Origin: an uncultured Verrucomicrobia subdivision 3 bacterium
GTDB lineage: Bacteria; Verrucomicrobiota; Verrucomicrobiia; Limisphaerales; UBA11358
Assembly: GCA_903872345.1 (NCBI GenBank)
Contig: CAIQKM010000174.1
Location: forward strand, 8,019-72,018
DNA length: 64,000 nucleotides
Direction of reading: 5' to 3'
Every line of letters starts with the position of its first letter. The stretch's first letter is position 1. This document shows positions 5,028 through 39,347 of the stretch, one piece after another. The notes beneath the pieces were generated by a model. It was not told the origin of the DNA. It searched no databases and saw only the letters and a program-made list of their open reading frames with translations. The position numbers and the translations under genes are program-made.

Positions 5028-5690
5028 TCATTCCCATCCGTGCAGCGATTCGTAGCGGAAGGTCATGTCATTCGTGTCATAGCCCTTGTACCACCGGGCA
5101 TGACCGTCGGAGAAAGCGATGTTCTGGCCCTTGGCATGAGCCTGCCAACCCAGGGCCGGGGTGCCGTTGACGGGGCCGCCGACGCAGTTCTGATCATAGT
5201 CATCCTTGTCGGAATCCACCGGGCTGAAATCCAGGGTGTCGCCGGAGAGCACATAGGCGGTGGGAAACATGATGCGGGATTCCACCACGGCGGCGCGCTG
5301 GTTGCCCGCGTCAATATAAGCGGCGCGGACGCCATTAAAGAAGTTGAAGGCGGACTGCTGGCTCTGGGGAATGAGCCGGTTGGCCGGGCAACGGTAAATG
5401 TTGGTGTTTTGCACGTAGGAAATGATCTGCTGCATCCAGCTTTGCACGGGCGTCACGGGGTCGGTGGCGCCCCAGGGAATGACGCCGGCGGATTCGGGGA
5501 AGCGGCCGCTGTTGTCATCCGCAAACATTTTCAGGCCGAGCGTAATCTGGTGCAGATGTCCCTGGCACTGGGCGCCCCACGCCCTTGTCTTGGCCGACGA
5601 CAGCGCCGGCAGCAGCAACGCCGCCAGAATGGCGATGATGGCAATGACCACCAGCAATTCAATCAAAGTAAACCCGCGCCGGCCTTTCAT
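5028..5690 (-). CDS. Prepilin-type N-terminal cleavage/methylation domain protein with an H-X9-DG motif (type II pseudopilin-like, DUF1559-type)
   Basis: N-terminus [31 protein letters not shown]-terminal [12 protein letters not shown] fits H-X9-DG. Confidence 0.9.
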
Positions 5691-5771
5691 AAGTTATGAG
5701 GTTAGACACCGGGCGGGGGAAAACGTTTCAAATATTTTTGCAGGGCAAGGAGATGGGCGAGGATGGGGAAA

Positions 5772-5806
5772 CATCCAACGCCCAACAGCGAACAACCAGC
5801 ATCCAA
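5772..5806 (-). repeat. Five tandem degenerate heptamers (TTGGNNG type)
   Basis: The minus strand reads TTGGATG CTGGTTG TTCGCTG TTGGGCG TTGGATG. It lies about 80 nt downstream of the stop at 5886. A similar 3-unit array is at 60495-60515 (+). Confidence 0.6.
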
Positions 5807-5885
5807 TGAAGGGAAAAAATCGCGGTACAACTATGGCGGTTACGGGGGGATGGCAAAACAGCCACTCCCCCCATCCAAATTTCAC

Positions 5886-6698
5886 TTAAAACCCGCGCAG
5901 GTCCGTGCTGCTGCGCTTGGGCAGGCCGGGCGCGGGGGTGCGCTTGAGGACGAGGTATTCGATGCCCATTTGCTGGCAATATTCGCGCTTGCCGCCTTTG
6001 TCGCCATCTTCGTTCACGGCGTAGATGTCCGGCTTCAGGCGGCGGATTTCGGGGTCGGCATCCAGCCAGCCATCGCCGCTGGAGATGATCGCCTCTTTGA
6101 CGTATTTGATGGAGCCGACGACATAGCGGCGTTCGTCCTGGGTCAGAAGCGGATGTCCTTCGCCCTTGAGGTGGCGGATATTGGCATCGTGGCCGAGGCA
6201 GACATAGAGGTCGCCAAAGGCGCTGGCCTCCTCGGTGAAACGCACATGGCCGGAGTGGAACCAGTCGTAACAGCCGGTGACGATGACCTTCTTTTTGCCC
6301 GGCGCGGAGGGCATGGGCGGCGGTGCGGGAAAGCCTTTCAATTCATCGGCGCTGAAGACGCGGTAGGCCAGTCCGTGCCGCCGGGCAAAGGCTTCACGGG
6401 CGGCATTGGCGGTGGCGGGCACATCGGCCCAGAGACCGGCCGGCAGATTGGCGGGCAACTCGTCCACGTTGGCGGTTTCCGCCAGGGGGATTACGTTACT
6501 AACGTAGCGAACGGCGTTGAGGAAATAGAGCCGTTCGGCGAGCGGGAATTTGGGGGCTTTGCCGGTAAGCCGGCTGATCGCGGCATCCGGCCAGAGCAAC
6601 ACGGAGAGTGCGCCCAGCTTGGCGGCTTCTTCCAGAAAACGGAGGTCGCGTGATTTGATGTCGTCGAATCCGCCGGAGACAATGATGGGAGTGGGCAT
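5886..6698 (-). CDS. Tandem cytidylyltransferase-fold (HIGH-type nucleotidyltransferase) protein. The N-terminal copy is degenerate; the C-terminal copy has an intact HxGH.
   Basis: The C-terminal half (KKVIVTGCYDWFHSGHVRFTEEA...GHDANIRHLKGEGHPLLTQDER) resembles RfaE domain II, TagD and ECT-type transferases. The N-terminal half (IIVSGGFDDIKSRDLRFLEEAAKLG) keeps the fold pattern but lacks HxGH. Confidence 0.8.
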   Translation of the reverse strand: MPTPIIVSGGFDDIKSRDLRFLEEAAKLGALSVLLWPDAAISRLTGKAPKFPLAERLYFLNAVRYVSNVIPLAETANVDELPANLPAGLWADVPATANAAREAFARRHGLAYRVFSADELKGFPAPPPMPSAPGKKKVIVTGCYDWFHSGHVRFTEEASAFGDLYVCLGHDANIRHLKGEGHPLLTQDERRYVVGSIKYVKEAIISSGDGWLDADPEIRRLKPDIYAVNEDGDKGGKREYCQQMGIEYLVLKRTPAPGLPKRSSTDLRGF

Positions 6699-6702
6699 GG
6701 GT

Positions 6703-7509
6703 TTACTTTTTGGCTGAGGGATTGGTCCGCACCTTCACCTGAAAAGCGCCAGGTACGGGTTCATGAGAAACAACGATCAGGTAGCCGCCGCCGCAGCCGG
6801 AATACATGGCGCCCAGGTACTGGCGTTGATACGCCTTGAGCAGGGCCATGAGGTCCAGCCGAAGCAACGGATGCCGGACAACATGGGGCAGCAACGTCTC
6901 CCAGCATTTCATATTGAGGTTCAGGGAAGCGCCAAGAGCGGCGGCATCGCGCTTCACGATGGCGTTATAGCAATCCTGGCCGGACTGACCGAGCTTGGCA
7001 ACCCACTTGGGCGTAAGATTTTTCTCACCCAGCGGGCTGTAGCCGTCCGGCCGGGGTTCGACCGGGATTAGGTAGAGCACTTTTTCGAGCCAGCGCGCGA
7101 CTTTGGCCGAGTTGCAAGATTCCACGTGCGAGGGGAAGACTCCCCCATGCACGTTGAAATCGTAGTCCAGACGATTCACGCCGGGATAGATGAGCCCGAT
7201 CATGTCCTGCGAGCCGCTGGGGTCGGTCTTGCCCTTATTTTCCGCCTCGTACAATTCGCGGACGAGTTGATCCAGCGGCCGGTTGGGCAGTTTGCCTTTC
7301 CAGAGCTTCATGGCAATCGCGCGGGTGCCGCTGGCAATGCCCGACCGATCCATGGGCCGGAAATCGGCCTCGATCTGCACCACCACCATGGAGCCGGGGG
7401 GCTTGGGGTTGTGCTGCGAAACAAAGGGCTGGTCAATCCAACCGCCCGCCAGTTGCAGGCGGTTGGGAATGGCCCCGAGATAGGCGGCGACCGACGCGGG
7501 CTTCTTCAT
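6703..7509 (-). CDS. GHMP-kinase-family sugar kinase, fucokinase/HddA-like and short
   Basis: RLQLAGGWIDQP matches the N-terminal motif of fucokinase-type GHMP kinases. SGIASGTRAIA is a degenerate motif II. GSQDMIGLIYPG corresponds to the GGWQDQ region. SGCGGGYLIV is motif III. There is a 4-nt gap to the next gene. Confidence 0.65.
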   Translation of the reverse strand: MKKPASVAAYLGAIPNRLQLAGGWIDQPFVSQHNPKPPGSMVVVQIEADFRPMDRSGIASGTRAIAMKLWKGKLPNRPLDQLVRELYEAENKGKTDPSGSQDMIGLIYPGVNRLDYDFNVHGGVFPSHVESCNSAKVARWLEKVLYLIPVEPRPDGYSPLGEKNLTPKWVAKLGQSGQDCYNAIVKRDAAALGASLNLNMKCWETLLPHVVRHPLLRLDLMALLKAYQRQYLGAMYSGCGGGYLIVVSHEPVPGAFQVKVRTNPSAKK

Positions 7510-7528
7510 GATTATTTTTTAATATGGC

Positions 7529-9070
7529 TCAAGGTTGGGCGGCATCCGTGCCGCCGGCCGGTTTCAAATGGGAACCGGTGATTTTCAGCGCGCAAGTATA
7601 GTCACTCACCTTGGTGGCAGGCAATTCTACGGTCAGTCCGTTGGCATCCTGGGTGAACTTGAGTTTGCCCTTGTAGCCAAGCAGTTCCACGCGCTTGATC
7701 TTGTTGACCTCGCCGTCGCCAGTGGAGGCCAGGGCGCGAACCGTCATGTGCCCGGTGTCGGGCCAGCCGAGGGCGATGGCGTAGAGGGTCTTGCCCTTGG
7801 TGGTGAAGCGGATGTCCTCCGCCGTGTACTTGAAGTCTTCCTTGAAGGCGCCGCCTTTGGCTTTCACGGGGCCTTCGCCGGCGATGTACCAGGGACGCGT
7901 GCCATAAATGGCCTCGCCATGGATGGCGAACCAGTCGGAAAGCTGGCCGAGCAATTGTTCCACTTCGGGGTCGAGCGTGCCGTCAGGGCGTTGCACGACG
8001 TTCAGCAGAAGGTTGCCGTTTTTGCTGACGATATCCACGAGCATGGTGACGGTCCAGTTGATGGGGCGGTACTTCCAGTTCTTGTTATAAAACCAGTCGC
8101 CGATGGAGGTATCCGTCTGCCACGGATAAGGGCTGATGCCGCCGCCCACGCCGCGTTCATAATCGCGCACCCAGCGGCCACCGGAATCCTGTTTGCAATT
8201 ATAGACGGTTTCCACGCGGCCATGCCGGTAGGCGGCGCCGGAGTTATAATAATCCGCAATCATGGCGAGGCCCACTTCATTGCCGAAGGGCACGGGGCCG
8301 TCGGAGTAAAGCAAATCGGGATGATAAGTGCGTTCGAGTTCCTCGATTTCCCCGAGCCATTGCTGCTGCCAAAGGGGGTTCTTACTGTACCAGCCTTTGT
8401 CGTTGCTATCGGCAGGGAAATGGTAGAGATCCCAGTTGTTGGAATTCGCCCCGTCATAAGGCACACCCGCGAGCGGGCCGGTCTTATCGGCATGATGACT
8501 GTCCTGGAACCAGGTGAAGCTGGCGCCGAGATGTTCGGAGACACCAAAGCGCAGGCCGTTTTCCTTGGCGGCTTTCTGCCAGGTGGCGACGACATCGCGG
8601 TGCGGGCCGTAGTTCACGGCATTCCAGGAATGGAGCTGGGATTTCCACAGGAAGAAATCGTCATGATGCGTGCCCATGCTGACGAAATATTTCGCGCCGG
8701 CCTTTTTGTAGAGTTTCATCAGGCGTTCGGGATCCCAGTTCTCGGCCTTCCAGAGGGGGATGATGTCCTTCCAACCGTTGGTGGAAGGATGACCATAACG
8801 GGCGAGATGGTCTTTGTAATCGGCGGTGCCCTGCTGATACATCTTGCGCGCATACCAGTCGCCCATCATGGGCACGGACTGCGGTCCCCAGTGGGCCCAG
8901 ATGCCGAACTTGGCATCCCGGAACCATTCGGGGTAGCTGTAGTTGGTGAGCGAATCCATGGTGGGCTGAAACGGCCCGGGCGTGACCGGCAGGTTTTGCG
9001 GAGTAGCCGAGTCGGCCCGGAGATTCGTGGCGGCCAACAGACACAGGCTGAGGAGAGGAATGAGTTTCAT
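7529..9070 (-). CDS. Alpha-L-fucosidase, GH29, secreted
   Basis: PEWFRDAKFGIWAHWGPQSVP...HHDDFFLW is the GH29 core. The start chosen is ATG 9070, giving the signal peptide MKLIPLLSLCLLAATNLRADS. The track ORF extends to 9169. Confidence 0.9.
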   Translation of the reverse strand: MKLIPLLSLCLLAATNLRADSATPQNLPVTPGPFQPTMDSLTNYSYPEWFRDAKFGIWAHWGPQSVPMMGDWYARKMYQQGTADYKDHLARYGHPSTNGWKDIIPLWKAENWDPERLMKLYKKAGAKYFVSMGTHHDDFFLWKSQLHSWNAVNYGPHRDVVATWQKAAKENGLRFGVSEHLGASFTWFQDSHHADKTGPLAGVPYDGANSNNWDLYHFPADSNDKGWYSKNPLWQQQWLGEIEELERTYHPDLLYSDGPVPFGNEVGLAMIADYYNSGAAYRHGRVETVYNCKQDSGGRWVRDYERGVGGGISPYPWQTDTSIGDWFYNKNWKYRPINWTVTMLVDIVSKNGNLLLNVVQRPDGTLDPEVEQLLGQLSDWFAIHGEAIYGTRPWYIAGEGPVKAKGGAFKEDFKYTAEDIRFTTKGKTLYAIALGWPDTGHMTVRALASTGDGEVNKIKRVELLGYKGKLKFTQDANGLTVELPATKVSDYTCALKITGSHLKPAGGTDAAQP

Positions 9071-9193
9071 GGTAGGTCGGACGATTTTGGAGGGGGATAG
9101 GTTATAAAGAAATGCTCCCACCCACCGGCGAGAACCGGTGAGGGGGAGTGGAAACGGCTGTGAAAACAAGGCGGTTGGTGGTTAAGGTTGGGA

Positions 9194-10240
9194 TTAACCA
9201 ATGCCAACGCGTTCGCCGGCCTTGCGTTTCTTATATTGTTCTTTGATCCATTTGTAGGTGGCGGCCAAGCCCTTATCGAGTTTGGTATCCGGCTCCCAAC
9301 CCAGCACCTGCTGGATAAAGGTGTTGTCCGAATTGCGACCCGCCACGCCCTGCGGGGCGTTCAGATCATACTTCCGGTTCATCTTGGTGCCGGCAATTTT
9401 TTCAACGCGGGTGAGCAGTTCATTGATGGAAACCAACTCACTGGAGCCGAGGTTGATCGGCGTGGCGATCAACTCATCGCAATGGGTGATTTTATCAATC
9501 CCCTTCACGCAGTCGTCAATGTACATGAAGCTGCGGGTCTGATCGCCATTACCCCAGATCGTGATGTCCTTGGCCCCGGTATCAATCGCCGCAATCACCT
9601 TGCGGCACAGCGCGGCTGGGGCTTTTTCGCGACCGCCATCCCACGTGCCGTGGGGTCCATAGACATTGTGGAAGCGGGCGATGAAGGTCTTCATGCCGCG
9701 TTCGTGCCAATATTCTTCGCAGAACATTTCGGAGATCAACTTCTCCCAGCCGTAGCCGCGTTCGGCCATCGCCGGATAAGCATCCGATTCCTTGAGCGCG
9801 CGGACCTTCGGGTCCTTTTGCAGCAGCGTGTTGTAAGCACACGCGGAGCTGGAGAAGAAGTAGCGGCGGGCGCCGGCGCGATAGGCGGCTTCCACCATGT
9901 TGGTGTTGATGAGGATGCTGCGGAGACATTCGACACGGTTGCGCTCAATGAAACCCATGCCGCCCATGTCGGCGGCGAGGTTGTAAACTTCCACGGCCCC
10001 TTCGCACACGCGTTTGCAATTGTCCTCGAGGCTGACGTCCAGACAGAGGTTCTGGACACCGGGCACATGCAGATACCATTCATACAGCGGCTTCTTGTCC
10101 ACGGCCCGGATGTTGGTAAAACCCTTCTTCTTGAAATACAGGGCGAGGTTGCCGGCAATGAATCCACCCGCGCCAGTGATGACAATCAAGTCATCCTTCT
10201 GCAGCGGCGGGTCTTTTTCCACGACTCGTTTATGTTCCAT
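9194..10240 (-). CDS. gme: GDP-mannose 3,5-epimerase (plant GME-type SDR)
   Basis: The sequence is collinear with recalled plant GME: ITGAGGFIA, NLAADMGGMGFI, FFSSSACAY, LKESDAYPA..YGWEKL, RFHNVYGPHGTWDGGREKAPAALCRK, GDQTRSF, GVAGRNSDN. Confidence 0.85.
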   Translation of the reverse strand: MEHKRVVEKDPPLQKDDLIVITGAGGFIAGNLALYFKKKGFTNIRAVDKKPLYEWYLHVPGVQNLCLDVSLEDNCKRVCEGAVEVYNLAADMGGMGFIERNRVECLRSILINTNMVEAAYRAGARRYFFSSSACAYNTLLQKDPKVRALKESDAYPAMAERGYGWEKLISEMFCEEYWHERGMKTFIARFHNVYGPHGTWDGGREKAPAALCRKVIAAIDTGAKDITIWGNGDQTRSFMYIDDCVKGIDKITHCDELIATPINLGSSELVSINELLTRVEKIAGTKMNRKYDLNAPQGVAGRNSDNTFIQQVLGWEPDTKLDKGLAATYKWIKEQYKKRKAGERVGIG

Positions 10241-10373
10241 ATCTTTATACTATTTTGATTTCAGCGACAGCAGGGCTGCCGGGAGTTGCGTCATGTTCCA
10301 GGCCACTTTGCACTTGTTTTGACCGGCGGGGAATGTCCATTCTTGACGGGTGCATGTCTGTTTTTGACTTTTT

Positions 10374-11252
10374 ATGAAAAAACCAGCAACAGCGGCCGCG
10401 ACTGCGCCGGACTTTTTCTCGGCACAGGTGGCGCAGGCCAGCCGTTTTTACCTTAATCTCAAACCGTCGGCCAAGGCGCCCCTGACAGTCATCTGCGGCG
10501 GGTCGGAACGGTGCGCGCCGGACTATGCGATTCACCGGGCAACATTCCCGTTTTACTCGATTGAATTTGTGGCGCAGGGCGGCGGGCAGTTAAAAATCAA
10601 CCGCACGGAACACCGGTTGCAGCCGGGCATGGTGTTCTCGTACGGACCGGGGGTGGCGCATGACATCACGACGCAGCCAGGTGAACCGCTGGTAAAATAC
10701 TTCATTGATTTCGCAGGCACGGAGGCGGTTCCCTTGCTGGGCTTGGCCAGGCTGAAGCCCGGGGCGGTGGCGCAGGTGTTCCCGCCCGGCGAAATCCAGC
10801 CGCTTTTTGATGAACTCATCCGCAACGGGCGGCGCGGCACCGTCGGCACGCCGGAAATCTGCGCCCAACTGCTGCGCGCCCTGGCGCTGAAAATCGCCGA
10901 GGCACGCGCGCCGCTGCCCGGGCACGACACGCTGGCCTTTGCCACCTACCAGCAATGCCTAGCCCATTTCCGGCGGCATTTTCTGCGCCTGCGCTCCGTG
11001 ACACAGGCGGCCGGGGAATGCCATGTGGACGATGCCTATCTTTGCCGGCTGTTTAAGCGGTACGACCATCAATCACCCTACCGGTTGCTCATCCGGCTGA
11101 AGATGAATTACGCGGCCGAACGGCTGCAATCGCCCAACGCCCTGGTCAAGCAGGTGGCGGAAGAAACGGGCTTCCTCAACCAGTTTCATTTCTCGCGGGT
11201 GTTCAAATCCGTGTTCGGCATGCCCCCGACGGGGATGGTGAAGATGCGTTGA
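10374..11252 (+). CDS. AraC-family transcriptional regulator (cupin sensor plus HTH)
   Basis: C-terminal AraC HTH (YLCRLFKR...VAEETGFLNQFHFSRVFKSVFGMPP) with an N-terminal cupin-like region. Confidence 0.9.
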   Translation: MKKPATAAATAPDFFSAQVAQASRFYLNLKPSAKAPLTVICGGSERCAPDYAIHRATFPFYSIEFVAQGGGQLKINRTEHRLQPGMVFSYGPGVAHDITTQPGEPLVKYFIDFAGTEAVPLLGLARLKPGAVAQVFPPGEIQPLFDELIRNGRRGTVGTPEICAQLLRALALKIAEARAPLPGHDTLAFATYQQCLAHFRRHFLRLRSVTQAAGECHVDDAYLCRLFKRYDHQSPYRLLIRLKMNYAAERLQSPNALVKQVAEETGFLNQFHFSRVFKSVFGMPPTGMVKMR

Positions 11253-11326
11253 CCATGGGCGGGTTAATCTCCGCCAGTCAGGCCGTTATGGCAAGCCGGA
11301 GGGTTCCGCGAATCCCAACGCCAAAA

Positions 11327-12355
11327 TCATTTGCCCTGGCTCGCCATCTTGGCCATGACCTCGCGCACGAGGCTTTCAATGTCCACGCGCCGGGCGGGAA
11401 CATTTGCCGGCGCCCCCGCCGCGCGCCGCACTTCGCATTCCCGCGCCGCCTCGGCGTAGCCGCATTCGCCCAGGAGGCAGGCCAGCTTGCCTTTTGCCTC
11501 TTCAAGATTGGCAAGTTCCGGCGGACTCAGCGGGAAACGCGGCGGACCGGGATTGAAGCCGCGCAAGGAAACCGCCGCGCGAAAACCTTCCGGGAAATTT
11601 CCCGCCGCAAACATCGCCGCGATGATATCCTGAATTTTGAGCTGCACGCGCCGGCATTCCGCGTGGTTGCCCGACTGGAAATCGTTGTACAATTTCACGA
11701 TCACTTCCGGCATCACGCCGGAACTGGCAATCGTGCCGCCGTCGCCGCCCATGACCAGGCTCGGATACAAAATTTCCTCGGTGCCGCTGAAGCACACGAA
11801 GTCCGGCCGCTGCGGCTTGATTTGCGCCAGCATGGTGCAGAAGCGGGGAAAATCGCGGCTGGAATCCTTGATGCCGATGATGCGCGGACAGTCCACCGCC
11901 AGCCGCCGCACCACCGGCAGGCTGATTTCGTTCGAAAACTGCGGAATGTTGTAGAGGAGAATATCAATCGGCGACTTGGCCGCGAGGTCGCGAAAATATT
12001 TTTCGATGCTCTCCTGGGAAACCTTGTAATAATATGGCCCGGTCAAGCTTACCGCCCGGCAGCCAAGATCCGCATAAAATTGGCACGCCTGCAAGACCTG
12101 ATCCGAATTCGGCTCGGCTGCGCCCGCAAGAATCGGCAGCCGGCCCCGATTTTCCTCGGCCATAATTTTCACCACGCGCAGCCGATCCTCATAACTCAGA
12201 CGGATGAATTCACCGGTGCTGCCGTTGGGATAAAGCCCGTGGACGCCCTTTTCGATGAGCCATGCCGTCAGCCGCCGCAACTCGCCCTCGTTGATCGAGT
12301 GGTCGTCGTTGAAGGGAACAATGTTGGGCGTGTAGATGCCGGATATTTTGGTCAT
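11327..12355 (-). CDS. DHDPS/NAL-family class I aldolase (candidate 2-keto-3-deoxy-sugar-acid aldolase) with a ~45-aa C-terminal extension
   Basis: Family motifs NGSTGEF, LYNIP and IGIKDSS are present. Start ATG 12355 overlaps the upstream stop (ATGA). The track ORF extends to 12430. Confidence 0.85.
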   Translation of the reverse strand: MTKISGIYTPNIVPFNDDHSINEGELRRLTAWLIEKGVHGLYPNGSTGEFIRLSYEDRLRVVKIMAEENRGRLPILAGAAEPNSDQVLQACQFYADLGCRAVSLTGPYYYKVSQESIEKYFRDLAAKSPIDILLYNIPQFSNEISLPVVRRLAVDCPRIIGIKDSSRDFPRFCTMLAQIKPQRPDFVCFSGTEEILYPSLVMGGDGGTIASSGVMPEVIVKLYNDFQSGNHAECRRVQLKIQDIIAAMFAAGNFPEGFRAAVSLRGFNPGPPRFPLSPPELANLEEAKGKLACLLGECGYAEAARECEVRRAAGAPANVPARRVDIESLVREVMAKMASQGK

Positions 12356-13200
12356 TTTATGTTTGCCGCCGCGGCGGTCAGCAGATTTTTTAACTGCACC
12401 GTTTCGGAAATAATATCCACTTCGTTGCAATGCTCCCAGTCAATCCACACATATTCCAATGCAACCCAGCCGTTGAACTTCTGCCTGGCGAGCGCGGTTA
12501 CGACGCGCCGAAAATCAATGGTGTTTTCCTTCAACGGCGCCTGCAACCGGCCCCGGCGCGCGGTGCGTGCGTGCAAATGCGTGGCCAATTGGGTCAAGGG
12601 CTCGATGCGCGCGTCGGCAATGCCGGCGCGGGTGAAATGTGCATAATCCAACGTGAACCCAAGGCCAGGCACGCGCTGCGCCAAACCCAGCGCCCGTTCC
12701 GGCGTGTCGGTGAGCGAACCGACATGCGGTTCGACGGCAAGCTGCAGTTTGGCCGCCTTTGCCTGGGCGACCCGCCAGTTGAGTTCCTCGGCACTGCGCG
12801 CGACGGCAGCCGCCCGGGATTCCTCCGCGAACGTCACGCCCGGCAAAATCGTTACGTGCCCGGCACCGGCTGCTTGAGCATAATCCAGCGTCCGCAAAAA
12901 CTGGTCGCGGGCAAAGACGCGTCGTTTTGCCTCGGGGTGATTGATGGCAAACTCGACGAAACCGGCATGGATCTGCAAGAAAATATCCGATGCCTTGAGT
13001 CCATGAGCAGCGAGGCGACGTTTTAATTTGGCACCGCTGACTTGCGGCCGCTTCAACTCGACACCGGGTTTGAGGTGTCCGTGCCCCTCGAACATGCCAA
13101 TGTCGGCGCCACGAAATCCGAGCAACGCGATGGCTGCCAGAGCCCGGTCATGGTCCAGCAGAGGAAACGAAAAATCGGTGCAGCTTAAATTCAATTTCAT
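12352..13200 (-). CDS. Xylose-isomerase-like TIM-barrel protein (sugar phosphate isomerase/epimerase family)
   Basis: 282 aa with the typical pattern for this family (MKLNLSCTDFSF..., HV.ILPG, LAVEPH, LDYAHF). It sits in an operon with a Gfo/Idh/MocA oxidoreductase. Confidence 0.75.
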   Translation of the reverse strand: MKLNLSCTDFSFPLLDHDRALAAIALLGFRGADIGMFEGHGHLKPGVELKRPQVSGAKLKRRLAAHGLKASDIFLQIHAGFVEFAINHPEAKRRVFARDQFLRTLDYAQAAGAGHVTILPGVTFAEESRAAAVARSAEELNWRVAQAKAAKLQLAVEPHVGSLTDTPERALGLAQRVPGLGFTLDYAHFTRAGIADARIEPLTQLATHLHARTARRGRLQAPLKENTIDFRRVVTALARQKFNGWVALEYVWIDWEHCNEVDIISETVQLKNLLTAAAANIK

Positions 13201-13203
13201 GCG

Positions 13204-14382
13204 TCAGTTGGTTTGAAAATCCCCGCCGCCGCGCGTCCGCGACGCGCGGTAAAGCGCGTTCAGTTTTTCGCAGGTCGCAGCCAGACTGCGACCATCCCTT
13301 AAATATTCCTGCAACGCCTTGCCACCATCGGTCTGCAACGCAACGTAACCGCTGTAGCGCGGCCGGACGATGGCTTCGGTCTGAGTGAGCCGCGTGGCGC
13401 TGAAAAATCCGCCGCACAATGTATCCGCGAATGAATCATCCCAAGCCGCGCGATGCGACGGCTGGCCGCCGGCGTGGACGTAAATTCCTTTTTGCACGTT
13501 ACCACTCGCGACAAACAGCGCGTAGTCGAGCGCGACGGCGACATTGGCGCAATTCGCAGAAATCGCCAGGCCGGTTCCGCCCAGCACGCTGCGCAGGCGC
13601 GGACCGCCGGGTTCCAGGGTAAGCAGGTTGCCAAACCGCAGCGGCTTCGGCGCGAAATGGGGACGCGCGTAGTTGTTGTAGGTGTAGGCGAAGGCGTTCC
13701 ACGCGAAATCATCCGTCGTGGTCATGCGCTCGGCGACGAGAATCGGATTCAATTCGGAAATCTCGGACGGCATCGGCTCGGTCAATTCACGCAGCATCTC
13801 CGCGGCGCGCTGCATGATATCGGCGGGCGCAATTGCCTCATGGTCGGCGCAGGGTTCGGCACCCAGGGCTTTGACCAGCATGATGAAATGCAAAAACAAA
13901 TCGGCGTTAAAGCCGGGAATCACGGCCAGCCGGCGGCGGGCCAGCGCCACCGCATCGGTCCAGGTTTGCGGCGGCGCCACCCCGGCGCGTTCCAGCAAGT
14001 CGGGTCGCCAGCTCGGCGCGGGCGTGGCGGCGTCAATCGGCAGGGCGAGCAGCTTGTCTTGCCAGACATAACTTTCAAAGGTCGGGCCGATGGCATTCCG
14101 TTTCAATTCGGCGAGCGTTTCGGGTGGCGCAATTTTGGCCAGGTCATGCACCAGATTTTTTTCAAAGCAAAATCCGGCCCAGGGATGGTCAATGACAACG
14201 AGGTCGAACTTTTTCACGAGCACGTCGATTGGCGCATGCCCGAATTCATCCAGCGTGCGTTTCTGCCAGTGAATGCGGACTCCGCGATGAGTTTCCTCAT
14301 AGCGCTGGGCGGTCGCCACGAGCGGCGGCAGTGCGCGGCTGTGGTCCCAGGCGATGCCGGTGAGTTGAATGGGCTGACTCAT
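13204..14382 (-). CDS. Family-1 solute-binding-protein-like (PBP2 fold) protein without a signal peptide
   Basis: SBP-like patterns are present: DLVVIDHPWAGF, YVWQDKLLALPIDAATPAPSWRPDLLERAGVAPPQTWTD. The N-terminus MSQPIQLTGIAWDH has no hydrophobic segment. Start ATG 14382 overlaps the upstream stop (ATGA). Confidence 0.6.
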   Translation of the reverse strand: MSQPIQLTGIAWDHSRALPPLVATAQRYEETHRGVRIHWQKRTLDEFGHAPIDVLVKKFDLVVIDHPWAGFCFEKNLVHDLAKIAPPETLAELKRNAIGPTFESYVWQDKLLALPIDAATPAPSWRPDLLERAGVAPPQTWTDAVALARRRLAVIPGFNADLFLHFIMLVKALGAEPCADHEAIAPADIMQRAAEMLRELTEPMPSEISELNPILVAERMTTTDDFAWNAFAYTYNNYARPHFAPKPLRFGNLLTLEPGGPRLRSVLGGTGLAISANCANVAVALDYALFVASGNVQKGIYVHAGGQPSHRAAWDDSFADTLCGGFFSATRLTQTEAIVRPRYSGYVALQTDGGKALQEYLRDGRSLAATCEKLNALYRASRTRGGGDFQTN

Positions 14383-15440
14383 TTTAAATTGCGAAGGGAG
14401 ATGTTTTTTCCGCAGGTGGCGGAGTCGCACGCGGCTTCGATGATCTCCATGGAGGCGAGGCCAAGGTCGCCCGGCGAGCCATTGGAAACGTTGCCGAGGA
14501 TTGCATCAATAAAATTCAACGCGGGGGATTGCGCGGGATAAATTTCGCTCTCGGGAAGAGCGGGAAATTCGGTGCGCCGGTCGGCGAAATCAATCAGCGT
14601 CATTGTGCCGCGCCAGAGTTCCAATTGCAGGATGGCTTGGCTGCCGAAGACGCGGACTTCATAATTCCGTTCACAGAGCGGCGTGGCCCCGGTGCTGGCG
14701 ATTGAAACCAATGCGCCATTTTCCAGCGTAACTGTGAGCGCGTCGTAAATGTCGTTCGGCGAGCCGTCCCGGTCAAAACGGGCAAACACCTCCGCCGCGC
14801 GCAGGCCGGTCAGAAATGTTAAATACGCCGCCGCGTGTGAAACTTGACAGTAAATCTGCCCGCCGCCGGCGATGGCGGGGTCGTTGTACGAACCGTGGCG
14901 CGGCTCGACATAGACGTTCGCCAGACCGTGCGTGGGCGAGGTGTTGATGCCGCGCAGCAGCTTGTCAATGGGATTGGTCATCAGCACGGAAATCATTTTG
15001 ATTTCGCCCAGCGCGCCGGTCTGGATGAGCCGCCGCGCTTCGATGCCGTGACGCGTAAAATGCCAGGGGCAACTTATGACCAGTTGGAGATTTTTCTGCG
15101 CCGCCAATGACACCAAAACCCGGGCCTCGCTGGCGGTGAAGGTCATCGGCTTTTCAATCAACACGTGCCGGCCGCTTTCCAAGGCCGCCCGGGCCTGCGC
15201 AAAATGAACGTTGGGCGTCGAAGCGACAATGACGGCGTTCAGTTCGGGCAGCGCGAGCAACTCTTCGACCGTGGTGCAGGCGTGCTTGGCACCAAAGTCA
15301 CGCGCGATTTTTTCCGCCTTGGCGCGGTCGCGACTCTGCACGGCCACCAATTCCGCCCCGGCGTGTGACCGGACGGCGGGGATGTGGGCGAACGTAGCCC
15401 ACCAGCCCGCGCCAATCACGCCGATACGAACCTGCTTCAT
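14379..15440 (-). CDS. Gfo/Idh/MocA-family NAD(P)-dependent oxidoreductase
   Basis: MKQVRIGVIGAGWWA... is the Rossmann N-terminus, and HVLIEKPM is the family motif. Confidence 0.9.
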   Translation of the reverse strand: MKQVRIGVIGAGWWATFAHIPAVRSHAGAELVAVQSRDRAKAEKIARDFGAKHACTTVEELLALPELNAVIVASTPNVHFAQARAALESGRHVLIEKPMTFTASEARVLVSLAAQKNLQLVISCPWHFTRHGIEARRLIQTGALGEIKMISVLMTNPIDKLLRGINTSPTHGLANVYVEPRHGSYNDPAIAGGGQIYCQVSHAAAYLTFLTGLRAAEVFARFDRDGSPNDIYDALTVTLENGALVSIASTGATPLCERNYEVRVFGSQAILQLELWRGTMTLIDFADRRTEFPALPESEIYPAQSPALNFIDAILGNVSNGSPGDLGLASMEIIEAACDSATCGKNISLRNLK

Positions 15441-15442
15441 GC

Positions 15443-16636
15443 TTAACTCTTAAATGGCGCGAGCAATTCGCGTTTCAGTTCCACGCCAAAGCCGGGTTTG
15501 TTCGGGTCGAGCGTTACTTTGCCGTTCACCGGCAGCGGCTCGCCTTCGAGCACGCTGAAGATCGGCTGGATGTCCCTGCCTTCGCCAACGGAGAGGAACT
15601 CGGCATAGGGCGAATTCGTGTTGGCCATGACGAAATGATAATTATAAACCGATGAACCATGCGGGATGACCGGCATGTCGTACGGCTTGGCCATCGCCGC
15701 GATCCAGCGTGTGGGCGTATAGCCGCCGCACCATTGCATCTCCGGCTGAATGATGTCCGTGGCGTGGTTGTGGATGATGTCGTGAAACGCCTTCGGATGA
15801 TATTCGAGGTTGCCGGTGGCCAGCAGAATGGGCGAAATGCGATCACGCAGGATGCGATTGCTCTCCGTCGCCCAGCCGTTTTGCAGCGGGTCTTCAAACC
15901 ACTTCACATCATAATCGCGGACGCGTTCGGCCACGCGCATGGTAAACTCGATGTCCCACGAGAGATAGCAATCAATCATGATCTCCATGTCGTCACCGAG
16001 GCCGCTGCGGAGTTTGCCGATGAGCTTTTCCATTTTCTTGATGCCTTCGCGCCCGCTTTCCACGCCCCAGGGCGCGGCAATTTTGACACCGAGAAACCCG
16101 CGATCGCGCCATGAGTCCACATAATCGGGGTGAATCGTGACGTAGCAGGGAATGGCTTCCTTCGTCTGGCCGCCGATGATTTTATAGACCGGCAGTTTCT
16201 GCGCCTTGGCCACCAGATCATAGAGCGCCAGATCCACCCCGGCCATCGCCATGCTGGTGACGCCGCCCAGACCATACGGCAACGTCGAGCGGTTCATCTG
16301 ATCCCAAATGAGTTCAATGTTGTAGGGGTCCTGCCCGATGAGGAAACGCTTGAAATGTTTTTCGATGATGGCGCAGGCAAATTCACCGCCGCCGTAATTC
16401 GCGCAGAATCCGCTCACGCCGTCGTCGGTGAAAATTTCAATGACGAACGGGTCCTGTCCCCCGCCCATCCACAGCGAGCGAACGCGCGAATACTTCGGGT
16501 GGACGGACATGGGATTGGAAATCAACGTCTGCGCCTGCCAGCCCCCGCCCCAGTATTGCGATTCGCCCACGGCCGCGCCCCGCGCGCCGGTGTCGCCGGA
16601 TTTGATGGTATAAAGTTTGATGTCGGTGATTTTCAT
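15443..16636 (-). CDS. Enolase-superfamily (mandelate racemase / muconate lactonizing enzyme) sugar-acid dehydratase, L-rhamnonate-dehydratase-like
   Basis: The C-terminal region (IPHGSSVYNYHFVMANTNSPYAEFL...PVNGKVTLDPNKPGFGVELKRE) closely parallels recalled E. coli YfaW/RhmD. There is a 2-nt gap to the next gene. Confidence 0.8.
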   Translation of the reverse strand: MKITDIKLYTIKSGDTGARGAAVGESQYWGGGWQAQTLISNPMSVHPKYSRVRSLWMGGGQDPFVIEIFTDDGVSGFCANYGGGEFACAIIEKHFKRFLIGQDPYNIELIWDQMNRSTLPYGLGGVTSMAMAGVDLALYDLVAKAQKLPVYKIIGGQTKEAIPCYVTIHPDYVDSWRDRGFLGVKIAAPWGVESGREGIKKMEKLIGKLRSGLGDDMEIMIDCYLSWDIEFTMRVAERVRDYDVKWFEDPLQNGWATESNRILRDRISPILLATGNLEYHPKAFHDIIHNHATDIIQPEMQWCGGYTPTRWIAAMAKPYDMPVIPHGSSVYNYHFVMANTNSPYAEFLSVGEGRDIQPIFSVLEGEPLPVNGKVTLDPNKPGFGVELKRELLAPFKS

Positions 16637-35339: not shown

Positions 35340-37710
35340 TTTGCCCGGCGGCGGGCAGAACGGAGATTTCGGCGGCGCTCGTCCACCCGGCCCCGTTAAC
35401 CTCCTGCAAGGCCGTCAGCCGGAAAAACCGGGCGGTGACCGGGGCAAAATCAACGATTTGAAGCGATGGATTGTTCTGGATGTTCGCGAACCTGCCCACA
35501 ACGATGTTGGTCGTCCAGTTCACCCCGTCCGCGCTGGTTTCAAAACGGTAGTTATCAATGGTGCCGTTGGGATTCCCGTCCTGGCGCGGCAAATAAGTGA
35601 ATCCCGCAATCCGGTGGGCCGCACCCATGTCAACCGTGATGAAATGCGGCATCGCCAAATCATTATTCCAACGCGTATGCCAGAAGGTGGCGGATTTGTT
35701 GTCAATCGCGTTGGCGGCGCCGTTGTCACCCCCGGCGGTTTCCTCGCTGTCCACGGCAACCACTTTCCAGCCGACCGGTATCAGCCCGGCGAACGACTTG
35801 GCGGCCAGAATGCCAAGCTGGCCGTCCGGCAACAGCAACGCCGCCTGCACGGTGCCGCCCGAAATCATGGGGATGGGCGAACCGTAAACCGGCGAATGGG
35901 GAGTGGGCGCGCTTCCGTCGGTCGTATAAACCATCCGGCAGCCGGCGGAGTTGTTGAGCGTCACCAATCCATTCGGTTCGCGATCGGAAATGACGGCCGG
36001 CAGGGCGGACGCGGATTGCCGGTACAGCCCGATTTCCGCGAGCGTCGGTTCCAGGCGCGAACCGGTGATGCGGATGCGAACCTGGCTGGCGGTCACCGGC
36101 GATTTCAGCCGGATGAGCCGGTGATGGCCGACAGTCGTAAGGGTGTCGGACGCGACATGTTCCGGCGCGATCCATACCGAACCGTCCCACATTTCAATGG
36201 CAAAGGATTCAATTCGCTGGCCGCAATGATCCACCGCTTCCTGCAACGAAACGACGTCGAACGTGACGGCCTTGGGCAGCGTCAGCGTCACTGTGCCGGT
36301 GGTTTGTCCCGGCGCGGCTTCCCACCAAGTATCAAGGTTTCCGTCCAGAGCCAGCGCGGGAGTGTTCGTCTCATTGGAACTATCGGCCGTGAGCTGCGCA
36401 CCATCCGCGAGGTTGATGGCGAACGTTTCGTTGACCACCTGCCCCATCCGGCTCAGGGCCAGAACTTCATCGTCGGGTATCAATCCGCGCGTGTCCGGCG
36501 AAAGGTTCAGGATCAAATTTCCGTTGCGCCCGACGGACGAGTAATAGACATCCACCAACTGCGAGACGCTGCGGGCATGCTTCCCGTTCGCCCAAAACCA
36601 GGCGCCATGATCGAGAATGGTGAAATTCACTTCCGCCGGATACCACCAGAGATGCGAACCGGGCGTGAGTTTGTCGCGACCGCCCAGATCGCCATACAAA
36701 TCCGGCCAGCGACATGATTCCGGCGCAGTCGGCAGCGGAATCACGCTCCATTCCGTGGTGCGGCCCACGCCGCCCTCATTGCCCACCCACCGCACGTCCG
36801 GCCCTTTGCCCATGATGACCGCCCCGGGTTGCAGCCGCCGAATCAGGTCATACCACGCGTTGTAGTCGTAAGTCTCGTGGACGCTCGGATCGGGATTCGC
36901 GCCGTCAAACCAGACTTCCCCGATCGGTCCGTATTGCGTCAGCAACTCGTAAAGCTGGTTCAGGAAATAGCGGTTGTAGTCGTCCACGACGTAAGTGAAA
37001 TTCGTGAATCCCGGCGTCGGCGCGCGGCCCTTCGCGGGGTCGCTCTGAAAACTCGCCGGATCGGTTGGAATGGCCGAAAGCACCTTGGCGCTCTCGTTGC
37101 CATAATAACCCGCCGGATTTTTCGGATTCGTCCGCAACTGGTAAAGGTCGGCGGGTGAAAGGTAAACGCCCAGCTTGAGACCGTGGGTACGGGCGGCCTG
37201 GGCCACTTCGCGCACTTCGTCGCCCTTGCCGTCGCGCCACGGACTGGCCGCGACCGAATGCGGCGTGTAGCGCGTGGGCCAGTAGCAAAACCCGTCGTGG
37301 TGCTTGCAGACCAGCACAATCATCTTGCCGCCGAATTTTTGCATCGCGTCGAGCCACTGGTTCGCGTCCAGTTCCTTGGGATTGAAAATCGAGGCGTCTT
37401 CGCGGCCCGTGCCCCACTCCACGCCATTGAACGTGTTCACGCCAAAGTGGAGGAAAAACGTCCGCTCCAGCCGCATCCAGTCCGTCTGGTTGGCGCGCGG
37501 CAGCACCTTCGCCGCCTTTTCCGCGATGACGGTGTCGGAATCGCCGCTGGCAATGACCTGCTCGGTGGCAAAAGGAATTGCCGGGGCCGTCCCTGCGTCC
37601 GCCAGCGCCGGCCCGCAGGCCAGCGCCAGCATGATAAAGATGACTGCCAGGCTTGTCCGCCGGGCTGCGAATTTTTGGACGATTCGATGTTCCATAAACA
37701 AAACCAGCAT
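35326..37710 (-). CDS. Alpha-L-fucosidase, GH29 (subfamily-B-like) with two C-terminal F5/8 type C (discoidin/CBM32-like) domains
   Basis: FFLHFGVNTF...KHHDGFCYWPT is the GH29 core. F5/8-C signatures: ALDGNLDTWWEA and AIDNKSATFWHTRW...ARFFRLTAL. Confidence 0.88.
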   Translation of the reverse strand: MLVLFMEHRIVQKFAARRTSLAVIFIMLALACGPALADAGTAPAIPFATEQVIASGDSDTVIAEKAAKVLPRANQTDWMRLERTFFLHFGVNTFNGVEWGTGREDASIFNPKELDANQWLDAMQKFGGKMIVLVCKHHDGFCYWPTRYTPHSVAASPWRDGKGDEVREVAQAARTHGLKLGVYLSPADLYQLRTNPKNPAGYYGNESAKVLSAIPTDPASFQSDPAKGRAPTPGFTNFTYVVDDYNRYFLNQLYELLTQYGPIGEVWFDGANPDPSVHETYDYNAWYDLIRRLQPGAVIMGKGPDVRWVGNEGGVGRTTEWSVIPLPTAPESCRWPDLYGDLGGRDKLTPGSHLWWYPAEVNFTILDHGAWFWANGKHARSVSQLVDVYYSSVGRNGNLILNLSPDTRGLIPDDEVLALSRMGQVVNETFAINLADGAQLTADSSNETNTPALALDGNLDTWWEAAPGQTTGTVTLTLPKAVTFDVVSLQEAVDHCGQRIESFAIEMWDGSVWIAPEHVASDTLTTVGHHRLIRLKSPVTASQVRIRITGSRLEPTLAEIGLYRQSASALPAVISDREPNGLVTLNNSAGCRMVYTTDGSAPTPHSPVYGSPIPMISGGTVQAALLLPDGQLGILAAKSFAGLIPVGWKVVAVDSEETAGGDNGAANAIDNKSATFWHTRWNNDLAMPHFITVDMGAAHRIAGFTYLPRQDGNPNGTIDNYRFETSADGVNWTTNIVVGRFANIQNNPSLQIVDFAPVTARFFRLTALQEVNGAGWTSAAEISVLPAAGQNDSK

Positions 37711-37724
37711 GGCAGCCGGGAATA

Positions 37725-39347
37725 TCAGGGTTGAATTTTCAGCGCCAGTGCAATTTTTCCGTCAAACGTTTCCGGCAGCTTGACGTGCAATCCGCCGGCA
37801 TCGCGGGTGAATGCCAATTTGCCGCCGCCGAGCAGACGGACCACGCCGATTTTGCCCGGCCAGTTGGCGGCATCATCTGCAAGCGACTTGATGGTCACCT
37901 GGCCGTCCTTTGGAATATCCAGCACGATGGCGTAAAGGACTTTTCCGTTTTTCGATTGCGTGAAACGAATGTCCTCCGCCGTGAACGGCTTGTTCTGCAC
38001 ATCCTTCTGGCCGTCAAACTGACCTTTTTCCGCCACGGCGGTGGACGGGCCTTCGCCGTAAATTTTCCACGGGCGCGTCGCATAAATCGCGTCGCCGTTC
38101 AGCTTCAGCCATGCGCCAATTTCGCTGACGATCTTGATTTCGTCCGCGTCCGGCTGGCCGTCGCGCTGGAGCGGCACGCTCAACATGAGGTTGCCGTTTT
38201 TGCTGACGATGTCCGCCAGCATCCGGATGACGGACGCGGCGGGCTTGTAATAATGATACTTGAATATGTTCTGATCATAATGCCAGGAACCAATGCAGGT
38301 GTCCGTCTGCCACGGCAGCGGCAGAATGCCCTGGGCTTTGCCGCGCTCAATGTCATAGACCAGCGCACGGCGCTGCGTCTCATCCAGCCATTTGCCGTTC
38401 ATCACCGCCCCGGTGCGACCGTGCCGGTCCAGACGCGTGTTATAGAAATGCGCCGCCAGTTTCAGGCCGACCTCATCCGTCACGCCGTGAAACGGCAGCA
38501 CAGTGTCGTCGAAATAAATTTGGTCCGGATGGTAGTCGTCCCAAAGCTGCTTCGTGCGCTTGAAAAATTTCTCCATGTAGGCTGCGTTGGGCACGCTGCT
38601 GCCTTTGGCGGCATTCCATTCCCAATTATACGCCCCCGGCGGGTGGTTTTGCGCGTAAAGTTCCTGCGGATCAAGGCCGTCCCACCAAAGCCCCTTGCCA
38701 TCGGCCTTGGTAAGCTTGACGTCGTAAGGCACGCCCGCGAACGGGCCGGTCTTGTCCGCGCTTTGCGCCGGTTCATACCACATCCACGTGTGCGAAGCGT
38801 GAACGCTCACCGCAAAGCGCAGGCCGTTCTTGCTCGCCGCGCGCGCCCAGCCGCCGATCAAATCCTTGTGCGGCCCAACCGCGACGGAATTCCAGGGCTG
38901 GTATTTCGAATCAAACAGGTCAAAGTTGTCGTGGTGGTTGGCGAGCGCCATGAAGATTTTCGCCCCGTTGTCCTTGTAGAATTTCAGCAGCTTGTCCGGA
39001 TCAAAATGTTCCGCCTTCCACACGTGGATCACGTCCTTGAAACCGTTGGTCGAGGGATGGCCGTATTCCGCGAGGTGCGACTTATAATCGCCGCTGCCCT
39101 CCTCATACATGCTGCGCGCATACCAGTCGCCATGCTCCGGCTCGCATTGCGGCCCCCAATGCGCCCAGATGCCGAACTTCGCGTCGCGAAACCATTCCGG
39201 CGTCTGATAGTTCGTCAGCGAATTCCAGTCGGGTTTGAAAGGGCCGGCGGCAATCTCCGGCAAAGCCAATAAATTTGTTTGCGCCGGCGCGTTCGCGAGC
39301 GAACAGCCCAGCGCCAATGCGGTCAATACGATTCGTCTCATTGTCAT
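37725..39347 (-). CDS. Alpha-L-fucosidase, GH29, secreted (paralogue of 7529..9070)
   Basis: PEWFRDAKFGIWAHWGPQCEP...NHHDNFDLF. It appears about 60% identical by eye to the 7529 gene over the N-terminal half. Signal peptide MTMRRIVLTALALGCSLANAPA. Confidence 0.9.
   Translation of the reverse strand: MTMRRIVLTALALGCSLANAPAQTNLLALPEIAAGPFKPDWNSLTNYQTPEWFRDAKFGIWAHWGPQCEPEHGDWYARSMYEEGSGDYKSHLAEYGHPSTNGFKDVIHVWKAEHFDPDKLLKFYKDNGAKIFMALANHHDNFDLFDSKYQPWNSVAVGPHKDLIGGWARAASKNGLRFAVSVHASHTWMWYEPAQSADKTGPFAGVPYDVKLTKADGKGLWWDGLDPQELYAQNHPPGAYNWEWNAAKGSSVPNAAYMEKFFKRTKQLWDDYHPDQIYFDDTVLPFHGVTDEVGLKLAAHFYNTRLDRHGRTGAVMNGKWLDETQRRALVYDIERGKAQGILPLPWQTDTCIGSWHYDQNIFKYHYYKPAASVIRMLADIVSKNGNLMLSVPLQRDGQPDADEIKIVSEIGAWLKLNGDAIYATRPWKIYGEGPSTAVAEKGQFDGQKDVQNKPFTAEDIRFTQSKNGKVLYAIVLDIPKDGQVTIKSLADDAANWPGKIGVVRLLGGGKLAFTRDAGGLHVKLPETFDGKIALALKIQP

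Follow-up and report, generated by a model that had tools for sequence, protein, structure and literature searches.

What is the function of an operon in which a homologue of GME (GDP-mannose 3,5-epimerase) is encoded together with a secreted GH29 glycosidase, a short sugar kinase, and a tandem nucleotidyltransferase of the cytidylyltransferase (CT) fold? The question is raised by a 64,000-nucleotide stretch of contig CAIQKM010000174.1 (the window) from a freshwater verrucomicrobium, whose genome (6.5 Mb, 94.6% complete) has as its nearest named relatives 'Verrucomicrobia subdivision 3' and Limisphaerales metagenome-assembled genomes (MAGs). The stretch is present in lake-water metagenomes from several studies. 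The data comprise the identities and folds of the genes' products, the conservation of catalytic and sugar-contact residues, gene fusions, and conserved gene neighborhoods, and they indicate that the kinase and transferase probably activate a free sugar of the L-galactose or L-fucose type as a non-orthologous counterpart of Fkp. The complete Leloir-like route that we favor, with L-galactose converted via L-galactose-1-phosphate and GDP-L-galactose to GDP-mannose, is assigned a probability of roughly one-half.

The four co-directional genes described in a first-pass annotation of this DNA are all present as open reading frames on the minus strand, and its spacings of 123 nt between the GME and GH29 genes, 19 nt between the GH29 and kinase genes, and 4 nt between the kinase and transferase genes are correct. 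A fifth gene, absent from that annotation, encodes a divergent AraC-family regulator and is part of the operon unit. By the look of their N termini, the epimerase, kinase, and transferase are predicted to be cytoplasmic. The genes are arranged as follows.

10374 to 11252, plus strand: AraC-family regulator with a cupin-type ligand domain and HTH_18, divergent from the operon (Pfam AraC_binding 1.2e-12, HTH_18 1.2e-16)
9194 to 10240, minus strand: GME homologue, 348 amino acids (phmmer against plant GME structures)
7529 to 9070, minus strand: secreted GH29 enzyme (α-L-fucosidase/α-L-galactosidase family), variable member of the operon (Pfam Alpha_L_fucos and Fucosidase_C)
6703 to 7509, minus strand: short GHMP-fold sugar kinase, 268 amino acids, of an uncatalogued fucokinase-like family (family profile, AlphaFold2 (AF2) model)
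5886 to 6698, minus strand: tandem CT-fold nucleotidyltransferase, 270 amino acids (Pfam CTP_transf_like, AF2 model)

As a single sequence the kinase has no match in Pfam or NCBIfam at an E value of 0.01 and nothing significant in the PDB, and it is identified only via a family profile of 43 diverse relatives and its predicted fold. The family is large, with 7210 relatives at E ≤ 0.001 (clusters at 90% identity) and 657 representatives at 50% identity, and the matches listed, each more than 80% identical, are almost all unnamed or 'hypothetical'. Two distant relatives match GHMP_kinases_C above its cut-off (3.7e-7 and 1.3e-6; 29-31 bits against 21), with others falling below it. Searched against the PDB, the family profile has its best match in the Fkp fucokinase domain (PDB code 9iip; 1.4e-16) and scores heptose kinases lower (1e-7) and mevalonate kinases lower still (4e-5), an order that agrees with the fucokinase-type assignment of the first-pass annotation. 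The AF2 model (pLDDT 94.3) has a two-domain GHMP fold, and its top 50 Foldseek matches (probability 1.00) are all GHMP proteins, headed by WcbL and HddA-like kinases along with the Fkp kinase domain and mevalonate kinases, WcbL and Fkp being practically level.

In the Fkp structure, Arg-592 and Asp-762 are catalytic, the latter as the base, and L-fucose is held by Trp-599, Asp-601, Thr-602, and Gln-761, the contact residues binding fucose O2-O4 or stacking on C4-C6 (PMC11982464). HMMER alignments to 9iip place R17, W24, and D26 of the kinase (PNRLQLAGGWIDQP) together with Q101 and D102 (SGSQD) at the positions of Fkp R592, W599, D601, Q761, and D762, respectively. W24, D26, and D102 are invariant in the 43 diverse relatives, and R17 and Q101 are at least 90% conserved. 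Heptokinases have GGGTD at the motif of the fucose-stacking tryptophan. The kinase is ∼100 residues shorter than the Fkp kinase domain and is, on these alignments, probably a trimmed GHMP kinase of the fucokinase branch, retaining residues that would act on the anomeric hydroxyl of a sugar with L-galacto configuration; phosphorylation of such a sugar at C1 is its predicted function.

The transferase matches Pfam CTP_transf_like (PF01467) at 1.7e-12 (48.1 bits, cut-off 21) over residues 139-231 only. This second half contains the HSGH motif (H148-S-G150-H151), invariant in 25 sequences. Its copy in the first half has diverged; it aligns to single CT domains, with FDDIKSRD replacing HxGH. Of the tandem HIGH-type nucleotidyltransferase proposed at first pass, the tandem CT fold and the second-half motif stand, and the first half proves degenerate. 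The AF2 model (pLDDT 93.2) gives a whole-length Foldseek match to human ethanolamine-phosphate cytidylyltransferase (ECT; PDB codes 4xsv/3elb) with an E value of 5e-16 and a TM score of 0.75. By profile, ECT is matched by two stretches (2.6e-24) and TagD by residues 5-94, and the single domains are structurally matched to TagD, HldC, and a Thermoplasma RfaE-like protein. The protein is predicted to be a sugar-1-phosphate nucleotidylyltransferase with an active second half. Joint fold prediction of the transferase with the kinase scored 0.01 against a mark of 0.32, which is evidence neither for nor against their binding.

GME interconverts GDP-mannose and GDP-L-galactose, with GDP-mannose on the favored side of the equilibrium, and the roles of its catalytic residues are said to have been assigned by Major et al. 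in 2005. The operon epimerase aligns over residues 18-341 with the plant GME structures 8sg0 and 2c59 (phmmer, 6.6e-83 and 1.6e-82) and keeps the GME segments SSACAY (SSACxY), YGWEK (YGxEK), GGREKAPAA, and GRNSDN, so that the catalytic motifs are retained. The GME identity given to this gene at first pass is borne out by the full-length similarity to the plant enzyme and by the segments carrying the catalytic cysteine, the Tyr-x3-Lys, and the second lysine. The residue roles are described together with a verrucomicrobial homologue whose GDP-mannose 3,5-epimerase activity is proven (PMC6678494). The operon protein is, judged by this similarity, a true GME homologue for which interconversion of GDP-mannose and GDP-L-galactose is predicted.

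The GH29 protein is clearly assigned by Pfam (Alpha_L_fucos 2.7e-81, 274.2 bits, cut-off 25.2; Fucosidase_C 1.6e-13). Its N terminus after the ATG start is signal peptide-like as judged by eye, the only such N terminus among the four proteins, and the open frame extends back to a TTG at 9169. Its best solved relatives are both structures of the Bacteroides plebeius exo-α-L-galactosidase BpGH29 (PDB code 7snk, 3.6e-87; PDB code 7ljj, 4.7e-86), with the next best at only 5e-60. The 6.5-Mb genome holds ∼35 GH29 (Alpha_L_fucos) genes, several of them in tandem (for example window positions 36433-39254 and contigs C119, C130, C187, C197, and C200), which for a bacterium living in fresh water is an exceptionally large set of fucosidases/L-galactosidases. 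Its two RhaM-type mutarotase genes (C140:45259-45582 and C108:101221-101547) each have GH29 genes within a few kb (C140:47859; C108:99552 and 106717), a proximity that hints at a role for the RhaM-type enzymes of this genome in the use of L-fucose or L-galactose.

The GME-kinase-transferase trio is found in all 10 loci of relatives, where the GH29 gene shifts position or is absent. A wider set of 80 further loci was collected with the kinase profile. GME lies directly upstream in 55 of the 74 loci with enough upstream DNA, the tandem transferase lies downstream of the kinase in 70/77, and a divergent AraC orthologue is upstream of GME in 25 of the 69 loci with enough upstream DNA. GH29 orthologues with 62-76% identity adjoin the operon in 13/80 loci, and any GH29 gene is present within the locus in 25/80, with up to four per locus. 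These loci come from at least five phyla (Verrucomicrobiota, Acidobacteriota, Planctomycetota, Latescibacterota, and Alphaproteobacteria) and include two cultured carriers, Rhizomicrobium electricum DSM 21034 and Limisphaera sp. VF-2. Thirteen loci without an adjacent GME show no conserved alternative gene upstream of the kinase, and GME is encoded elsewhere in each of the five such genomes tested. The gene arrangement is far from chance. The neighborhood proposed at first pass is thus conserved in related and unrelated genomes as far as GME, kinase, and transferase are concerned, but it is a three-gene core plus AraC in which GH29 is variable rather than a fixed unit of four.

Further genes recur beside this core. 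Two operons of the window's clade contain a transporter gene scoring above the FucP equivalog cut-off, and in five loci, among them that of Rhizomicrobium electricum, the transferase gene is immediately succeeded by one for a ManC-type guanylyltransferase and then by FucP. With the query set used, no glycosyltransferase gene was found within or next to the operon, either in the window or in the 80 related loci. The operon is also carried by several 'binchicken' MAGs whose records bear the title 'uncultured Bifidobacteriaceae bacterium' (L040, L043, L050, L067, and L098), with 82-87% identity to the window in L040, L043, and L050; these MAGs nest among Verrucomicrobiota in the kinase tree, and their taxonomic labels look wrong.

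Across the 50% representatives of the kinase family, the kinase domain stands alone, behind one CT domain, behind two, behind a RhaM mutarotase and a CT domain, behind glycosyltransferase domains, or behind a nucleoside phosphorylase-like domain. The CT-kinase, tandem CT-kinase, and RhaM-CT-kinase fusions constitute Rosetta-stone evidence from sequence that kinase and transferase would act sequentially. A RhaM (L-rhamnose-type mutarotase) fusion gene is followed by an MFS transporter gene, of the type that scores as FucP in the window's clade, and then GH29, and FucP-like MFS, RhaM, and GH29 genes recur among 50 fused-clade loci from Bacteroidota, Ignavibacteriota, and others. In one long-read contig the order is LacI, GME, kinase, tandem transferase, RhaM, and an ABC sugar transporter. 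The family context points to a free sugar that would be released by GH29, imported, mutarotated, phosphorylated at C1, and activated with a nucleotide. In a maximum likelihood kinase tree, a branch with 99% support splits the window's clade from the fused clade, and GME linkage follows the split, with 63/92 rows in the window's clade (separate kinase and tandem transferase) and 3/52 in the fused clade. Among five fused-clade genomes tested, the Fkp pyrophosphorylase domain was found in none, and GME was absent from four.

Other fusions are recorded in the wider family. P0197, P0183, P0167, and P0228 join the kinase to GT2, to a DXD-glycosyltransferase, to a GT-like domain, and to a PNP_UDP_1 phosphorylase with a CT domain, respectively. 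The surface-glycan loci L023-L027 (relatives G001, G010, G035, G017, and G011) and L029-L031, with GT2, GT4, GT9, Wzy_C, WecG, exosortase, and Bac_transf genes, contain fused CT-kinase paralogues that share 35-40% identity with the kinase of the window; L025 also holds a GME paralogue with 59% identity. Genes of the lipopolysaccharide (LPS) core (GT9, LpxD, LpxI, and Kdo-kinase) surround a tandem CT-kinase fusion (P0163). In a Sedimentisphaerales MAG (L132:4165-8806) two different CT-kinase fusions flank a GME homologue with 56% identity, followed by a FucP-like MFS gene, and this pair may represent one activation enzyme each for L-fucose and L-galactose.

In the route that we propose, secreted GH29 enzymes would free α-linked L-galactose or L-fucose outside the cytoplasm, and a FucP-type symporter, operon-encoded in relatives and encoded elsewhere in this genome, would import the free sugar. 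The short GHMP kinase would phosphorylate the anomeric hydroxyl to give β-L-galactose-1-phosphate or β-L-fucose-1-phosphate, and the second half of the tandem CT-fold enzyme, using an NTP that is probably GTP, would form GDP-L-galactose. GME would then convert GDP-L-galactose to GDP-D-mannose, toward the thermodynamically favored side, and a ManC-type guanylyltransferase, a phosphomannomutase, and an isomerase would deliver the carbon to central metabolism, or GDP-mannose would pass into glycans. The genome holds a ManC homologue. The canonical Fkp pyrophosphorylase domain (PF07959) is absent from the four proteins and none was found in the 94.6% complete genome, as the non-orthologous replacement suggested at first pass would have it.

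We infer L-galactose rather than L-fucose as the substrate, GTP as the nucleotide, and the net direction of flux. GME pairs GDP-L-galactose with GDP-mannose and the embedded GH29 enzyme is closest to an L-galactosidase, both of which speak for L-galactose, and GME yields no useful product from GDP-L-fucose. Induction of GME alongside uptake and activation would be sensible if it acts after activation. The ManC-type gene behind the transferase in five operons, the second GME copy described below, the FucI-like genes of this genome, and its ∼35 GH29 genes are counted on the side of L-galactose and of flow toward GDP-mannose. A catabolic route from GDP-L-fucose through GME was considered and rejected, as no further conversion is known for its product, which would be GDP-6-deoxy-D-mannose, and as FucI-like genes serving the ordinary breakdown of L-fucose are present in the genome. 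The widest form of the proposal is put forward more tentatively, at somewhat short of even odds. It holds that the operon represents an undescribed Leloir-like assimilation of L-galactose to mannose phosphates, with new minimal GHMP L-galactokinases, the first GTP-using member of the CT fold, a GME working in the 'reverse' catabolic direction, and horizontal spread among polysaccharide-degrading Verrucomicrobiota, Planctomycetota, Acidobacteriota, Latescibacterota, and some Alphaproteobacteria.

Several observations weigh against the route from L-galactose to GDP-mannose, the first of them concerning the sugar and the remainder being taken with the explanation that each favors. The similarity cluster of BpGH29 is not isofunctional and includes true fucosidases (PMC11189522), so that closeness to BpGH29 is a pointer to L-galactose and not proof. 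Fkp itself strongly favors L-fucose over L-galactose, with a Km of 34 μM compared with 3.3 mM (PMC11982464), and likeness to a fucokinase is by itself therefore no pointer to L-galactose.

The strongest competing explanation, and the one that the first-pass annotation had adopted, is an Fkp-like salvage for the cell's own glycans, in which scavenged L-fucose or L-galactose would become GDP-L-fucose or GDP-L-galactose for glycosyltransferases and GME (with ManC) would provide a parallel de novo supply of GDP-L-galactose. Salvage by Fkp in Bacteroides is a precedent (PMC11982464). In at least three related genomes, GME orthologues with 83-85% identity are encoded next to housekeeping or GT4 glycosyltransferase genes and have neither the kinase nor the transferase with them, which indicates that the role of GME in this lineage is independent of the pair and probably biosynthetic. 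The genome also holds a second GME copy (C96:33519-34562; locus L204:7517-8563, minus strand) with 95% amino acid and 88% nucleotide identity to the operon copy, adjoining an exosortase EpsH gene, a DUF3485 (EpsI-like) gene, and genes for a TPR protein and a DUF4114 protein; at the similarity tested, the stand-alone GME genes of relatives do not share this exosortase context. Together, lone orthologues and second copy suggest that GDP-L-galactose is a native glycan precursor. The fused kinase-transferase paralogues point the same way, being located in O-antigen and exosortase glycan biosynthesis loci with GT2, GT4, and GT9 genes, in one case with a GME paralogue; and since most of the five fused-clade genomes tested lack GME (4/5) and all lack Fkp, the product there must be used directly. 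ManC beside GME in one operon can also be read as de novo synthesis of GDP-L-galactose.

On the other side, the query set used brought up no glycosyltransferase accompanying the operon here or in the 80 related loci, and a co-expressed GME would drain the salvaged GDP-L-galactose to GDP-mannose. The second copy, at an exosortase/exopolysaccharide (EPS) locus, is probably the biosynthetic GME and is already available for that purpose, which makes the operon GME an additional copy under separate, sugar-type regulation. Regulators of the AraC or LacI type, combined with transporters and as many as four GH29 genes in a locus, give the appearance of a nutrient utilization locus. The stand-alone GMEs, the fused paralogues in glycan loci, and the ambiguity of ManC with GME keep salvage for glycans a serious rival, which we consider possible if on balance improbable. 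Of the first-pass reading as a whole, the kinase grouping, the gene linkage, and the absence of the Fkp domain are upheld, and the fixed four-gene unit is not. The link from degradation to glycan biosynthesis is not supported as it was put, a flow from GDP-L-galactose to GDP-mannose fitting a sugar-regulated operon with its own GME at least as well.

It is unlikely that the logic of the pathway is right with a nucleotide other than GTP, the product being a CDP-, ADP-, or other NDP-L-sugar and the GME homologue acting on that sugar or on an unrelated pool. We know of no CT-fold enzyme that uses GTP, and the characterized transferase relatives found (ECT, TagD, CCT, Fom1, and HldC) all use CTP or ATP, so that the case for GTP comes solely from the link to GME and ManC. 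The nearest curated model for the transferase is the ATP-dependent heptose-1-phosphate adenylyltransferase domain (rfaE domain II, TIGR02199) at 74.6 bits, below the equivalog cut-off of 181.5. Against this explanation stand the end-to-end alignment of the epimerase with plant GME (E value of 1e-82), the proven GDP-mannose 3,5-epimerase activity of the verrucomicrobial homologue (PMC6678494), and the ManC-type guanylyltransferase in five operons.

Very improbable is activation of another sugar, such as a heptose or sugar phosphate, by an HddA/HldC-type hybrid serving LPS or EPS, with the link to GH29 and GME incidental or reflecting other GDP-sugar chemistry: Foldseek does place the heptokinase WcbL (1.2e-7, then HddA-like kinases) marginally before Fkp (4.7e-7), practically level, HldC and the rfaE model are among the transferase matches, and P0163 lies among GT9, LpxD, LpxI, and Kdo-kinase genes, but the sequence profile prefers Fkp over heptose kinases by nine orders of magnitude, the fucose-stacking tryptophan of Fkp is invariant in the kinase family, the rfaE score is far under its cut-off, and the window's clade is tied to GME, FucP, GH29, and AraC and not to LPS genes (GmhA and GmhB were not searched for in the loci or genome).

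The surroundings of the operon were also inspected. Directly downstream lies one further gene on the same strand.

5028 to 5690, minus strand: protein with a prepilin-type N-terminal methylation motif/DUF1559 (Pfam, NCBIfam)

Such proteins are typical of Planctomycetota-Verrucomicrobiota, and this gene is not kept beside the operon in most relatives. A promoter and terminator scan of 5600-10500 returned a site count no higher than in shuffled sequence and is therefore uninformative on the operon boundaries. One lake metatranscriptome library contains a single 198-nt contig identical to 7301-7498, within the kinase gene, along with a few diverged GME pieces assigned to relatives. As RNA libraries can carry DNA, the contig hints only weakly at expression in situ, and the matches are too few to establish transcription or co-transcription of the operon. 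Beyond the AraC gene, a neighboring operon at 11327-16636 on the minus strand encodes a DHDPS-family aldolase, a xylose isomerase-like TIM barrel, an SBP-fold protein, a Gfo/Idh/MocA oxidoreductase, and an enolase-superfamily dehydratase whose best solved relatives are L-rhamnonate dehydratases (1e-76); from these families it looks like a non-phosphorylative deoxy-sugar acid route. The plus-strand open reading frame at 11249-12646 has no family match and is probably spurious.

Should the proposed route prove correct, bacteria would possess a nucleotide-sugar route for L-galactose and a second case of Leloir logic built from different parts, and bacterial GDP-mannose 3,5-epimerase would acquire a catabolic role. 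The fate of L-galactose from the glycans of plants, algae, and invertebrates in freshwater and soil glycan degraders, which have GH29 genes by the dozen, would be accounted for, and genomes regarded as 'lacking Fkp' would still be able to salvage sugars into GDP-fucose-type donors. A large unannotated kinase family gains a specific, testable function, and the two cultured carriers make direct tests possible. The operon enzymes are small and could serve the synthesis of GDP-L-sugars in biocatalysis.

No L-galactose kinase, L-galactose salvage, or Leloir-like L-galactose route turned up in full-text literature searches, and the literature found on bacterial GME discusses it only for LPS or antibiotic biosynthesis. 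The known bacterial catabolism of L-galactose, in Phocaeicola vulgatus and Luteolibacter sp. LG18, is oxidative and proceeds by L-galactose dehydrogenase to L-galactonate and on to D-tagaturonate (PMC12632266). Luteolibacter sp. LG18 is like the present host a verrucomicrobium dealing with the same rare sugar, but in contrast to the route proposed here, the oxidative routes have no C1 phosphorylation, nucleotide sugar, or GME.

An analogy in logic is the Leloir pathway (GalM, GalK, GalT, and GalE), likewise made up of four parts at one regulated locus, in which a mutarotase (of the RhaM type, found in relatives), an anomeric kinase of the GHMP type, and a step of nucleotidyl transfer are joined by an SDR epimerase leading to a central nucleotide sugar. 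The proposed route would differ in using L-galactose and not D-galactose, GDP and not UDP, a 3,5-double epimerization in place of the 4-epimerization, and a pyrophosphorylase-type reaction in place of GalT-type exchange, so that apart from the common GHMP and SDR superfamilies the parallel is one of logic only.

The pairing or fusion of a sugar kinase with a nucleotidyltransferase is shared with HldE/HldC and HddA/HddC. HldC is a CT-fold enzyme acting on a sugar-1-phosphate, and HddA/WcbL are the nearest GHMP relatives of the operon kinase after Fkp, whereas the HldE kinase has the PfkB fold and HddC the NTP-transferase fold. The heptose phosphates of these systems are made de novo in an LPS or capsule context, and the operon, with its GH29/FucP/AraC context, would handle free sugars released by glycosidases. 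For the transferase, the best whole-length match in sequence and structure is human ECT, in which tandem CT domains likewise form a pseudo-dimer in one chain; the identity is ∼18%, ECT uses phosphoethanolamine and CTP, and the first domain of the operon enzyme has lost HxGH.

The nearest functional counterparts are Fkp of Bacteroides fragilis (PDB codes 5yys, 9iip, and 9iit) and the eukaryotic pair FUK and FPGT, which activate a free L-galacto-configured sugar in the same two steps, an anomeric GHMP kinase reaction followed by nucleotidyl transfer. The operon kinase is homologous to that of Fkp, with catalytic and sugar-binding residues kept, and kinase and transferase are fused in the sister clade. 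Here, however, they are two separate proteins coupled to GME, the kinase is the shorter and escapes Pfam and NCBIfam, and the transferase has the CT (HxGH) fold in place of the NTP-transferase/β-helix fold (PF07959) of Fkp. The operon system is thus, as predicted from its components, Fkp-like in function while being no member of the Fkp family.

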